From positions 16,619 to 80,618 of the forward strand of contig CAVPOV010000015.1 in assembly GCA_963707045.1 (NCBI GenBank): DNA of 64,000 nt, given 5' to 3'. Position 1 is the stretch's first letter. Each line of letters begins with the position of its first letter. Positions 61,326-64,000 of the stretch are shown here, in pieces. Position numbers and translations under genes: made by a program. The notes under the pieces are model-generated. The model saw only the letters and a list, made by a program, of their open reading frames with translations. It made no database searches and was not told where the DNA came from. The DNA is from an uncultured delta proteobacterium. Its GTDB lineage: Bacteria > Desulfobacterota > Deferrisomatia > Deferrisomatales > JACRMM01.

Positions 61326-61742
61326 TCAACTCACATCCCAACCCGCCAAGAACTCGATGGGCGTCAGCACCCCGAGGCCGCCGCGGGGAAAGTCGTCGGG
61401 ATTGCGGGTCACGAGGGCCTCGGCTCCCGCACGCAGGGCCGAGAAATACTGGATCGCGTCCTCGAAGTCGGCGAAGTCCGCGTCCATCGCCTGGTTGAGC
61501 ACTTGGGCCGTCAAGTCGACGGGCTGGAACACGTCCCGAAGAAGGCGCAGCGCCTCCAGGGCTTTGGCCATTCCTGCGTGTCTCCGGATCACGTAGTAGC
61601 AATTGTTGTAACTGATCGCCGAGATCACCCCCGTGACGCGCCCCGCTTCGGCCAGGCTCCACACCCTCGCCGAGGGCGCGTAGAAGGGCTCCCGTGCAGC
61701 CAGCACGTCGAGCAGAACGTTGGTGTCCACGTGGACGACCAT
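61326..61742 (-). CDS. PIN-domain toxin (VapC-like)
   Basis: VDTNVLLD, DFEDAIQY and LVTRNPDDF. Confidence 0.9.
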   Translation of the reverse strand: MVVHVDTNVLLDVLAAREPFYAPSARVWSLAEAGRVTGVISAISYNNCYYVIRRHAGMAKALEALRLLRDVFQPVDLTAQVLNQAMDADFADFEDAIQYFSALRAGAEALVTRNPDDFPRGGLGVLTPIEFLAGWDVS

Positions 61743-61744
61743 CG

Positions 61745-61996
61745 CTACTCCTCGTACCGCTCGGCGAACGCCTCCTCGACGAGTTCCCGGTCGCTCCGCC
61801 CCGCGGGCAGGGTCACGAGCCCGGTGGCCCGCCGGGTCAGCGGGCCCGGCTCCTCGCACCGCGACCGCACCGAGACCGCCGCCTTGACGAAGCGAGCGAA
61901 CATCGAAGACACGCTCGTCCCGCTCTCCTCGGCCAACCACTTGGCCTGGGCCACCACCTCGTCGTCCGCGCTCAGCGTAAGCTTCGTCATCGCCAT
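61745..61996 (-). CDS. Antitoxin, RHH-like (DUF6364-type)
   Basis: TKLTLSADDEVVAQAK...GTSVSSM; lies directly upstream of the PIN gene. Confidence 0.82.
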   Translation of the reverse strand: MAMTKLTLSADDEVVAQAKWLAEESGTSVSSMFARFVKAAVSVRSRCEEPGPLTRRATGLVTLPAGRSDRELVEEAFAERYEE

Positions 61997-62358
61997 GCCG
62001 CACTCCGCACCCTCACGAATACGTACACAGTTTTGAGACTACCACGTATCCGTCCGCTCCTCCAAGCCATTGCCGAAATCCCCGTCAGGCAGATAACCCG
62101 AGCGTGAGCCTTCCTGCCCACGGTCGCCGAGTTGTCGGAGGGGCCCGCCGTGCACGGCACGCCCTCGCAATCCCCACTCCCCCCGCGTCCGGCAGAGGCC
62201 GGGAGATCGGGCACTTTCCGCGGCACCGACGGGCAAGAGGACGGTCCGCCAATCGCCGAGGCCCCGCAGACGTCCGGCGTGTGCCAAGTCCCGGTTGCCT
62301 CGGTCCCTCCGCCCGGGTGAGGATTGTGGACGACCGAACCGCACCACAGGAGATCGCC

Positions 62359-62793
62359 ATGCCCGACACCTACCTCGTCCAATGCGCCGGCTGCGGAACC
62401 CGCAACCGGATCCCCCACGAGAAGGCCGCCCTGGCCGGCCGGTGCGGCCGGTGCGGGGCGCACCTGCTCCCGTCCCACGCCCTGCCCATGGCGGTGACGG
62501 ACGCCTCCTGGGGCGAGCAGGTGCTCGGGTCCTCCGTGCCCACCGTGGTCGAGGTGTGGAGCCCCCGGTGCGGAATCTGCTCGCAGTACGAGGTGAGCGT
62601 TCGGCAGCTGGCGGTGCGCCTCTTCGGAAAGGCCCGGGTGCTCCAGCTCGACGCCGAGGAGAACCCGGCGACCGCGGCCCGCTACGGGATCCAGGGCGTG
62701 CCCACCCTTCTCCTGTTTCGAGACGGAAGACTCGTCTCCACACTCCACGGGCCCCAGGGAGAAAAGGGTATTCGAGAAATCCTGAAGATCTGA
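62359..62793 (+). CDS. TrxC-like thioredoxin with an N-terminal zinc finger
   Basis: CAGCGTRNR...CGRCG, active site WSPRCGIC and YGIQGVPTL. Confidence 0.88.
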   Translation: MPDTYLVQCAGCGTRNRIPHEKAALAGRCGRCGAHLLPSHALPMAVTDASWGEQVLGSSVPTVVEVWSPRCGICSQYEVSVRQLAVRLFGKARVLQLDAEENPATAARYGIQGVPTLLLFRDGRLVSTLHGPQGEKGIREILKI

Positions 62794-62829
62794 CGCCGGG
62801 CTGCCCCCCTTCACCGCCCCCCAAGGGGT

Positions 62830-62913
62830 TGTCGCCCGACGGCGACAACCGGACCCGGCCTCCCGGGCCGCCCGCCCGCCCCAGCCCTTCGCGGGCGTCT
62901 CCGATCGCAGACA
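62830..62913. promoter_or_regulatory. Two putative sigma54-activator enhancer sites
   Basis: TGTC-N10-GACA at 62830-62847 (inside a perfect 10-bp inverted repeat) and CGTC-N10-GACA at 62896-62913. Confidence 0.55.
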
Positions 62914-62978
62914 CTTCCGCCCTCCCAAGAAGGGGGTGGCACCTCCCCGAGCCCCCAGATCCCCGGTCGGGCCGCGGT

Positions 62979-62994
62979 TGGCACCGAGATTGCA
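62979..62994 (+). promoter_or_regulatory. sigma54 (-24/-12) promoter
   Basis: TGGCAC-CGAGA-TTGCA matches TGGCAC-N5-TTGCW exactly. Confidence 0.8.
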
Positions 62995-63004
62995 AAACCT
63001 CGGG

Positions 63005-63110
63005 GCAACGCCGTCCCTCTCCTCCTCGGGCCGGTGCCGGCCGCACTCTGCGGCCCCTCTCTTCCTCTCCTCCTCCTCTCTTGGGGAGGGCCGCCCGGCC
63101 CTCCCCGCAC
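63005..63110 (+). ncRNA. Candidate ~100-nt small RNA with anti-SD CU-rich motifs
   Basis: Starts at the expected +1 of the sigma54 promoter; has three hairpins and CCUCCU-rich loop and linker; no plausible plus-strand CDS follows. Confidence 0.55.
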
Positions 63111-63129
63111 TGTCTCGGGCAACGACGCT

Positions 63130-63633
63130 TCACCCCTGCGGCGCGGCGTCGCCCAGGTAGTGCCGCACCATGGACGGCGTGCAGGGACCGAAGTCGAAGT
63201 GGGGCGCCATGTCCCGGAGGAAGACCTCCCGCGGGTGCAGCAGGTAGAGCCCCTCGGCCTCGGCGAGCAGCGTGCCGTCCGCGGCCTCGAGGACCCCCCG
63301 GCCGACGACCTTGCGCCCCGGCTGCGGCTCGGCCCCTGCCCGCAGCACGAAGCGCTGCCCCAGGCGGGCCGGGGCCCGGAAGTGCGTCGTGAGGCTCAGG
63401 GTGACCGAGGTGGTGGCGAACCGGTGCCCCACCGCCCAGTAGATGACGTCGTCGAGCAGGGCCGACTGGATGCCCCCGTGCAGGATGCCGGGGTAGCCGC
63501 ACACCTCCTCCCCCGGCGACACCGCGCCCACCACGCTGCCGGCGGCGGCGTCCCAGGAGTAGGCGATCCCGAACCCACGGGGATTCCCGCTCCCGCAGAA
63601 GAAGCAGCTCCGAAACGAGGGAAGGCGCTCCAT
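63130..63633 (-). CDS. PaaI-family thioesterase
   Basis: CFFCGSGNPRG and GYPGILHGGIQSALLDD. Confidence 0.88.
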   Translation of the reverse strand: MERLPSFRSCFFCGSGNPRGFGIAYSWDAAAGSVVGAVSPGEEVCGYPGILHGGIQSALLDDVIYWAVGHRFATTSVTLSLTTHFRAPARLGQRFVLRAGAEPQPGRKVVGRGVLEAADGTLLAEAEGLYLLHPREVFLRDMAPHFDFGPCTPSMVRHYLGDAAPQG

Positions 63634-63772
63634 GGACGGCTCCTGTCGGGGCGGCGGCCTCGCTCGCAGGCCTTGAACGTTCGGGCTCGCGGCCTGTAGA
63701 TTCCCCCAGCCGGGTCCCCGTTGCAATGCCGGGCCCCTGCCTACCGAGGATCCCCCAACCCGAGCCGCGCCC

Positions 63773-64000
63773 TTGTCCGCTGACGCCTCCCCCCGCTCCC
63801 CGCTCGCCGCCGCGGCTTTCGCGTACGCGGTCGCCTGCGCCGGGGGGCTGGCGGTCCTCCCCCACCTCGAGCGCCCCCTCTCCACCTACGGGGCCCTTCA
63901 CGCCGGGGCCGTGCTCCTGGGGCGCGATCCCCTCCAGGGCCTGCTGTGGGGCCTCGGGCTGGGAGCAGCGCTGGCGGCGACGGGCGAGGGCCTGACGCGC
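63773..64000 (+). CDS. Membrane protein N-terminus (partial; possibly a CPBP/CAAX protease)
   Basis: Open hydrophobic frame LAAAAFAYAVACAGGLAVL...LLWGLGLGAALAA running to the window edge. The family assignment is a guess. Confidence 0.55.
   Translation, partial: MSADASPRSPLAAAAFAYAVACAGGLAVLPHLERPLSTYGALHAGAVLLGRDPLQGLLWGLGLGAALAATGEGLTR

Follow-up and report, generated by a model that had tools for sequence, protein, structure and literature searches.

Does the gap between two convergent protein-coding genes of an uncultured bacterium of the order Deferrisomatales hold the gene of a regulatory RNA, and if so, what would switch this gene on and what would its product act upon? The gap lies in a 64-kb stretch of DNA, referred to here as the window (C15:16619-80618), of the metagenome-assembled genome (MAG) G000, which comprises 3.56 Mb in 31 contigs, is 70% complete and has a G+C content of 69.4%. 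An original prediction, made from the letters of the window, had placed there a small RNA (sRNA) that is transcribed from a sigma-54 promoter under the control of a bacterial enhancer-binding protein (bEBP) and that blocks ribosome-binding sites (RBSs). We analysed the locus in G000 and compared it among 21 genomes of the order, which include two genus mates of G000, namely G001, a sister species, and G002; the records of the close relatives are labelled as Thermodesulfobacteriota or Deferrisomatales MAGs. Position numbers without a contig name are window coordinates, and C1, C5, C28 and the like are contigs of G000 unless another genome is named.

In our view, the gap, which separates a thioredoxin gene from a thioesterase gene, holds with high probability a sigma-54-driven non-coding RNA gene. 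The whole explanation, in which a sigma-54-dependent sRNA of about 105 nt would be switched on by a GlrR-like activator and would mask RBSs with a CU-rich loop and tract, is one that we favour with modest confidence.

Sigma-54 promoter and predicted activator sites

The elements upstream of the predicted RNA are the following:

62979-62994, plus strand: sigma-54 promoter, -24 TGGCAC and -12 TTGCA (TGGCACCGAGATTGCA, TGGCAC-N5-TTGCA), a perfect match to the consensus
62829-62848, no strand assigned: predicted activator site 1, TTGTCGCC-CGAC-GGCGACAA, with an exact TGTC-N10-GACA, TGTCGCCCGACGGCGACA, at 62830-62847; centre at about -166
62896-62913, no strand assigned: predicted activator site 2, the CGTC-N10-GACA variant CGTCTCCGATCGCAGACA, with a palindromic core at 62897-62912; centre at about -100

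Sigma-54 promoters follow the consensus TGGCAC-N5-TTGCW, with GG in the -24 and GC in the -12 element. The perfect TGGCAC-N5-TTGCA on which the original prediction was built is present at 62979-62994 and is the sole match in the window; 100 shuffled sequences gave 0.01 matches on average, with any match at all in 1 of 100. The start of transcription (+1) should lie near 63004/63005, for which we assume the rule of 11-12 nt past the GC of the -12 element. Genome-wide, G000 contains 16 perfect TGGCAC-N5-TTGCW sites, compared with about 2 expected by chance (hand arithmetic from base composition), and behind the majority of them, inspection by eye shows a purine-rich RBS and an ATG at a distance of 40-100 nt. 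One is located 57 nt ahead of a NifH-family match (C3:69411), and another upstream of the glutamine synthetase gene glnA (C8). The genome also encodes rpoN (Sigma54_DBD at C5:148502-148951) and gives 28 matches to PF00158 (Sigma54_activat), about 20 of them full-length. The promoter of G001 is identical at 13 of 16 positions, all 3 differences falling within the N5 spacer, and its -24 and -12 elements are kept. That 62979-62994 is a real sigma-54 promoter, which would drive a non-coding gene on the plus strand, is thus supported at the level of sequence.

Two side observations concern the other perfect sites. The NifH-family match (C3:69411-70226, plus strand) is spread over several frames, which suggests frameshifts or assembly errors in the MAG. 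The sites at C3:3119 (plus), C5:204277 (minus) and C9:104 (plus) have no start codon within the next 130 nt, and may belong to long leaders or to further non-coding transcripts.

The two palindromes of the TGTC-N10-GACA type that had been reported about 166 and 100 bp upstream of +1 are both there, the second of them beginning with CGTC and following the first by 66 bp. Site 1 sits inside a perfect 10+10-nt inverted repeat (62827-62850). In G001, site 1 is identical at 17 of 20 positions, with the half-sites kept and the differences in the centre, and site 2 at 17 of 18. Taken alone, TGTC-N10-GACA is not rarer than chance in the 64 kb (1 found, 0.75 expected). A pattern scan of the 21 genomes for the ordered pair of sites found it at 6 places in 4 genomes, all of them of one family, f1, and the reversed pattern, used as a control, gave 0. 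Two of them are the RNA locus of G000 and that of G001, three are a locus with a bEBP gene and a cytochrome gene in G000, G001 (C22) and G002 (C115), and the last is in G004 (C12); each has a sigma-54-type promoter downstream. A third locus in G000 (minus strand) has the ordered pair at C5:292467 and 292401, 66 bp apart, then GGGCCC-N5-TTGCA and a gene with MopE motifs. We therefore regard 62830-62847 and 62896-62913 as predicted activator sites of the sigma-54 promoter, a reading that the sequence comparison supports.

The gene at the third locus (C5:291415-292467, minus strand) contains Pfam Cu-binding_MopE motifs and has its start region at C5:292134, and its RBS is a 13-nt purine run. A lone site at C1:129889, 264 bp ahead of a sigma-54 promoter at C1:130153, is a weak candidate for the same regulon.

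Fold, conservation and transcription of the predicted RNA

Downstream of the promoter, the following features of the predicted RNA and the genes that flank it can be listed:

63004-63110, plus strand: predicted sRNA of about 105 nt; the promoter geometry gives its putative 5' end and the terminal hairpin its putative 3' end
63009-63036, plus strand: hairpin 1 (folding), CGCCG.CCC/GGG.CGGUG with the loop UCUCCUCCUC, whose core CUCCUCCU is unchanged in G001
63039-63055, plus strand: hairpin 2 (folding), GGCCGCA-CUC-UGCGGCC with the loop CUC
63056-63082, plus strand: unpaired C/U tract of 27 nt with two overlapping CCUCC, part of a pure pyrimidine run of 29 nt (63054-63082)
63083-63106, plus strand: terminal GC hairpin GGGGAGGGCC-GCCC-GGCCCUCCCC of 10-11 bp, the presumed terminator, without a U run; it could also serve the thioesterase gene
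62359-62793, plus strand: thioredoxin of the Trx2 type (Pfam Thioredoxin and Zn_ribbon_Thio2), flanking gene
63130-63633, minus strand: 4HBT/PaaI-like hotdog thioesterase, convergent flanking gene

Both flanking genes had been named correctly from the sequence, as family matches confirmed. Farther upstream, the overlapping open reading frames (ORFs) at 61326-62003 and 61745-61996, both on the minus strand, may, as judged by eye, encode a toxin of the PIN type with its antitoxin.

Folding of the 63004-63110 RNA reproduced hairpin 1, hairpin 2, the 27-nt tract and the terminal hairpin as they had been drawn originally. The three hairpins together have an energy of -52.2 kcal/mol, compared with -37.1 +/- 2.8 kcal/mol for 200 shuffled sequences (z -5.39), which is below all 200. 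The G001 copy adopts the same fold (z -4.08), and the CU tract is unpaired in both orthologues. Together, the loop of hairpin 1 and the tract hold three CCUCC outside stems. No pyrimidine run of the G000 genome is as long as the one of 29 nt that contains the tract, bar an 84-nt poly-T run at C25:111497-111580, which is probably an assembly artefact. A long-range closing helix, obtained when 63005-63120 was folded, was discarded: it is broken by the G001 changes at 63027 and 63117, and it is gone in the fold of 63004-63110. A search of 62000-64000 against Rfam (E <= 10) gave no meaningful match, the five matches obtained being at chance level and to unrelated families.

Is the RNA conserved as such? 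Between G000 and G001 it is identical at 98 of 102 positions (96%), with a 2-nt insertion in the tract, compared with 54-72% identity in the segments between the elements and 77% and 83% at third codon positions of the two flanking genes. Just past the terminal hairpin (63107-63129) the identity is 83%, with a 3-nt indel. All four substitutions within the RNA are structure-neutral: 63014 is in a bulge, 63018 and 63027 are at the ends of the loop, and C63041U, which is also found in an RNA-library contig of the sequencing run X8, keeps a G-U pair in hairpin 2. The -24/-12 element and the stems, whose conservation in relatives the original prediction had proposed to check, are thus kept in G001. 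G001 differs by indels of 1 nt and 2 nt, which leave no conserved reading frame and therefore rule out the small-protein reading of the locus (plus-strand ORFs 62936-63160 and 63034-63699). Judged from this sequence comparison, purifying selection is acting on a non-coding element together with its promoter and activator sites.

Among the 21 genomes, the RNA locus was found only in G001 besides G000, with 82% identity over the 331-nt query and an identical gene context. In another genome of the order, whose thioesterase orthologue (locus L038) is 62% identical as a protein, the syntenic gap after this orthologue lacks the element. In G002, which is 89% complete, the search found no RNA locus and no thioesterase gene, so the absence of the RNA there is uninformative.

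Could there be no functional RNA at all, the repeats serving only to terminate transcription of the two convergent genes, thioredoxin and thioesterase, and the match to sigma-54 sites being silent or fortuitous? Site 1 lies 36 nt past the thioredoxin stop codon and the terminal hairpin 24 nt past that of the thioesterase gene, both are perfect palindromes, and the frequency of TGTC-N10-GACA alone would fit such a view. It would, however, leave unexplained the perfect and conserved -24/-12 element with its variable spacer, the 96% identity over 102 nt between the terminators, the occurrence of the ordered pair at two other sigma-54 promoters, and a paralogous RNA family (see below). We consider this explanation very improbable, and continue with that of a sigma-54-driven RNA gene.

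As to transcripts, ten public runs contain part of the window, four of which were compared with it, and the DNA contigs of X1, X2 and X3, from three studies, match it without differences. Three points speak against our reading of the RNA gene. First, the sole record from an RNA library is the X8 contig, 154 nt long at a depth of 3.9, which covers 62929-63082 and of which 76 nt lie ahead of the predicted +1. As the promoter region is part of it, this contig is no demonstration of the predicted transcript: it shows no discrete start, end or strand, and could be due to DNA carry-over or to read-through from the thioredoxin gene. Second, a terminator scan called no canonical terminator, and the terminal hairpin is without a U run. 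Third, there are two orthologues (G000 and G001), and the conservation of this RNA itself does not amount to covariation.

A CU-tract RNA family in Deferrisomatales

A search for paralogues, which the original prediction had suggested, revealed what that prediction had missed: the 3' module of the RNA recurs in a multicopy, order-wide family. At three more loci of G000 (C1:65421, C25:95470 and C27:92245), a CU tract of 22-26 nt runs directly into a strong GC hairpin. The family loci are:

C1:65346-65487, plus strand: CU-tract RNA
C25:95427-95566, minus strand: CU-tract RNA
C27:92205-92345, minus strand: CU-tract RNA
L046-L075: loci in relatives

Two covariance models were used, R1, built from the sigma-54 copies of G000 and G001, and R2, for which 7 sequences of the 3' module served as the seed. 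Full-length R2 matches (E <= 1e-5) were found in 14 of the 21 genomes, 10 of these 14 lying outside the seed; by family, the counts were 8/8 for f1, 1/1 for f2, 5/6 for f4 and 0/6 for f3. Two of the copies are in the single-contig genome G010, at its C1:433589-433674 and C1:3247802-3247889. In an even sample across the phylum, none of 146 genomes of other orders gave a match at E <= 1e-4, with stricter filters applied there. One caution is in order for the assignment of the window's RNA to this family: the C15 and G001 copies are in the seed of R2, and membership judged by R2 is circular; the independent link is the R1 model, which gave weak matches to RNAs of this kind in G018 (E 0.0035) and G008 (E 0.015). 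Two metagenome scans yielded no further orthologue, as the promoter-plus-hairpin-1 pattern had 0 matches and the 5 matches to the hairpin-1 pattern were all in unrelated, apparently coding sequence, which R1 matched over hairpin 1 only. Four near-identical repeats, at C1:371326, C18:96653, C14:93977 (minus) and C1:204390 (minus), were spurious R1 matches, possibly an insertion sequence.

Covariation was assessed in an alignment of 14 of the 24 fetched R2 matches, chosen for their common 5' loop motif and excluding the sigma-54 copy. In these main-type RNAs, the loop of the 5' hairpin, GGUGGCAG, is invariant, the CU tract of 20-30 nt is constant, and 13 of 20 pairs of the terminator stem display compensatory changes. 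In many of the main-type relatives, T5-T6 follows the stem on the CU strand, and this strand is therefore the transcribed one. Weak U tails are also seen in paralogues within the genus of G000. Upstream of the main-type RNAs there is a -10 box and 3-4 direct repeats TTCTCA(T/C)G with a spacing of about 11 bp, which may be sites of the OmpR/PhoB type; a sigma-54 site was found in none of these promoters. The other family members would thus use promoters of the sigma-70 type. No meaningful Rfam match was obtained for seven paralogue and relative loci, and the family is not in Rfam.

The sigma-54 copy has in common with the family the intergenic CU tract and the GC hairpin, i.e., the 3' module. 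Its 5' domain and promoter differ, and the GGUGGCAG loop and the repeats are absent. Judging from these sequences, it may be either a genus-specific family member or a convergent copy of a low-complexity module.

The family bears on two other explanations. One assumes a long plus-strand transcript from the sigma-54 promoter, which would cross the thioesterase gene in antisense and might extend into the next gene on the plus strand, a CAAX-protease-like gene that begins at about 63773, some 670 nt downstream; the hairpins and the tract would then be a leader. This would agree with the lack of a U run after the terminal hairpin and of a called terminator. However, conservation falls past the hairpin, relatives have T5-T6 terminators at the end of this module, and the paralogues of the genus share the weakness of the U tail, which makes a long transcript improbable in our judgement. 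The other explanation places the function on the minus strand, as a 3' untranslated region (UTR) of the thioesterase mRNA, whose purine tract and GGA-rich hairpin loop would sponge CsrA. The genome has csrA, and the reverse complement contains many GGA motifs, but the minus-strand fold is unremarkable, no better than shuffled sequences (z -1.56), the promoter points the opposite way, and the promoters and T runs of the family are on the CU strand. We give this explanation hardly any credence. A short, sigma-54-driven RNA of the CU strand is the reading that we retain.

Candidate activator and mode of action

What could activate the promoter? In Escherichia coli, GlrR is described as activating the sigma-54 promoter of the sRNA gene glmY from three TGTCN10GACA motifs, which it binds at a distance of more than 100 bp upstream of the gene (excerpts of PMC3045617). 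The original prediction had drawn an analogy to this GlrR/QseF site, and the analogy is backed by the genome, because a matching, GlrR-like bEBP is encoded in G000, and the same pair of sites adjoins its gene upstream of a perfect sigma-54 promoter. The locus is:

C28:5453-10587, minus strand: histidine kinase, GlrR-like bEBP, two activator sites, sigma-54 promoter, cytochrome c (7 CxxCH) and glucosaminidase-domain gene

A site near-identical to site 1, TGTCGCC-N4-GGCGACA, is present at C28:6949-6966, and CGTCTC-N8-GACA lies 65 bp further, in the same order as at the RNA locus. The pair starts 8 nt past the stop codon of a bEBP gene of the REC-AAA+-HTH type (C28:6975-8657, minus strand), which has a histidine kinase gene upstream, and 316 bp ahead of a perfect sigma-54 promoter (C28:6650) for a secreted-looking cytochrome c with 7 CxxCH (heptahaem). 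The best NCBIfam match of this bEBP is GlrR (NF011695), with 620 bits over profile positions 5-444 of 445, followed by NtrC with 419 bits. For 10 other bEBPs, of the response-regulator type or of similar size, the score to GlrR was at most 348 bits, and GlrR was never the best match. As a separate observation, the arrangement at C28:5453-10587 is kept in G001 and G002.

Several facts count against the assignment of this regulator to the RNA gene. Its score of 620 bits is below the NCBI equivalog cut-off for GlrR, which is 763. The typing covered 11 bEBPs, with nine further PF00158 loci, mostly larger or partial, outside it. The bEBP and kinase genes are on contig C28 and the RNA gene on C15, i.e., they are unlinked, and the C28 sites are about 230 bp farther from their promoter than those at the RNA locus. 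From adjacency and motif sharing, we infer that the C28 bEBP probably controls the RNA gene. As a GlrR-like response regulator of a two-component system, it would bind both TGTC/CGTC-N10-GACA sites and activate the sigma-54 promoter. The same regulator would also drive the neighbouring heptahaem cytochrome c gene and the gene of the MopE-motif protein, which would make the RNA the post-transcriptional arm of an envelope/redox regulon.

As to its mode of action, the CUCCUCCU loop and the 27-nt single-stranded CU tract would, most probably, pair with purine-rich Shine-Dalgarno regions and block the initiation of translation. In excerpts of PMC10746234, CCUCCUCCC motifs of the alphaproteobacterial NfeR1 are described as silencing mRNAs at their start regions, and the 3' end of the 16S rRNA of G000 is canonical (...CACCUCCUUUCU). 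Hfq was found in 17 of the 21 genomes, including G001 and G002, and was not found in the incomplete G000. We give RBS pairing, which is argued here by analogy, an even chance.

Candidate targets were sought with RNAduplex by pairing the 29-nt pyrimidine run with each of 2950 crudely called start regions, a biased set, as the caller, based on G+C at third codon positions, picks starts partly by their Shine-Dalgarno match. The result is unspecific, which counts against our explanation: the mean duplex energy was -20.3 kcal/mol for start regions and -16.6 kcal/mol for coding interiors, with a standard deviation of about 7, no specific target emerged, and the start region of the C28 cytochrome gene (C28:6550) ranked 102nd of 2950. 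Of the original claim, the sigma-54-driven non-coding gene with its activator sites is supported by the comparison of genomes; the blocking of RBSs is a proposal, for which the duplex scan, with its weak enrichment, barely separates start regions from coding interiors. Two of the high-ranking partners may be mentioned in their own right. The third-best belongs to a 620-aa ORF (C2:115469-117424, plus strand), which is preceded by a perfect sigma-54 promoter and has, at its RBS, a purine tract of 26 nt (start region at C2:115562). Among the top five is the purine-rich RBS of a 179-aa ORF (C27:92352-92891, minus strand) located just upstream of the C27 CU-tract RNA; the latter may be derived from the 3' UTR of this gene.

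Alternatively, the sigma-54-dependent RNA could be a decoy or sponge for a protein, its tract and loop titrating Hfq, ribosomal protein S1 or a cold-shock protein, as GlmY does with RapZ. The GlrR-controlled GlmY is itself a decoy and not a base-pairing RNA, according to excerpts of the literature on it; moreover, seeds are usually far shorter than this tract, no specific partner came out of the target scan, and Hfq is present in the order. On the other hand, no candidate protein emerged from this analysis, the CCUCC repeats fit the anti-Shine-Dalgarno logic that, in excerpts of the literature, is proven for NfeR1, and the RNA does not resemble GlmY or GlmZ, as no Rfam match was found. We consider a decoy unlikely, and return to a pairing RNA in the comparison with known systems.

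The closest of these is GlmY (together with GlmZ of the Yersinia type) under GlrK/GlrR (QseE/QseF) in Enterobacteriaceae, which, in excerpts of PMC3045617, likewise has a sigma-54 promoter of an sRNA gene and upstream TGTC-N10-GACA sites; a REC-AAA+-HTH regulator with GlrR as the best family match is a further likeness. In contrast to that system, there are two sites here and not three, one of them starting with CGTC, the RNA resembles neither GlmY nor GlmZ, the regulator is encoded away from the RNA gene and scores below the GlrR equivalog cut-off, the genes that would be co-regulated encode a multihaem cytochrome and a MopE-motif protein and not rpoE, and the phylum is Thermodesulfobacteriota. 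Also, the RNA looks like a pairing RNA, unlike GlmY, the RapZ decoy. The Cuckoo/alpha-r14 sRNAs of Alphaproteobacteria (NfeR1, CcsR) are alike in being multicopy and in having unpaired anti-Shine-Dalgarno motifs of the CCUCC type; excerpts of PMC4615179 describe them as 2-4 adjacent hairpins, each with a CCUCCUCCC loop, whereas the RNA described here has one loop, UCUCCUCCUC, and a linear tract of 27 nt before the terminator. The NfeR1 promoter, as it is presented in excerpts of PMC10746234, has no sigma-54 signature, unlike that of our RNA. LhrC1-5 of Listeria are, according to excerpts of the literature, also a multicopy family of CU-rich sRNAs under a two-component system. LhrC1-5 differ in belonging to Firmicutes, in having no known sigma-54 dependence, and in their motifs, which are short and of the UCCC type. 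Qrr, CrcZ/CrcY and NrsZ are, like the RNA predicted here, regulatory RNAs controlled by sigma-54 and a bEBP, with unrelated RNAs and regulators; we know of no long CU tract in any of them. The kind of system is thus known, both as a regulatory RNA under a bEBP and sigma-54 and as an anti-Shine-Dalgarno seed; the family and the regulon are new, and the RNA is previously undescribed.

Riboregulation in Thermodesulfobacteriota is almost unexplored, and sRNAs are absent from the titles surveyed on the type genus of the order. Rather tentatively, Deferrisomatales may practise a modular riboregulation, in which a common CCUCC-rich strand and terminator are combined with a promoter and a 5' domain that are swapped per signal; in one genus, the module would have been captured by a GlrR-type system, which would switch on a multihaem cytochrome and, via the sRNA, switch down mRNAs with purine-rich RBSs. 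If this is true, the link of GlrR, sigma-54 and an sRNA is either ancient or was repeatedly invented outside Enterobacteriaceae. If confirmed, the RNAs would be a new sRNA family for Rfam; the cytochrome c, the MopE-motif protein and the sRNA would constitute the first predicted regulon of a GlrR-like system outside Enterobacteriaceae, and the family would offer a clean natural case of one seed module under several promoters.

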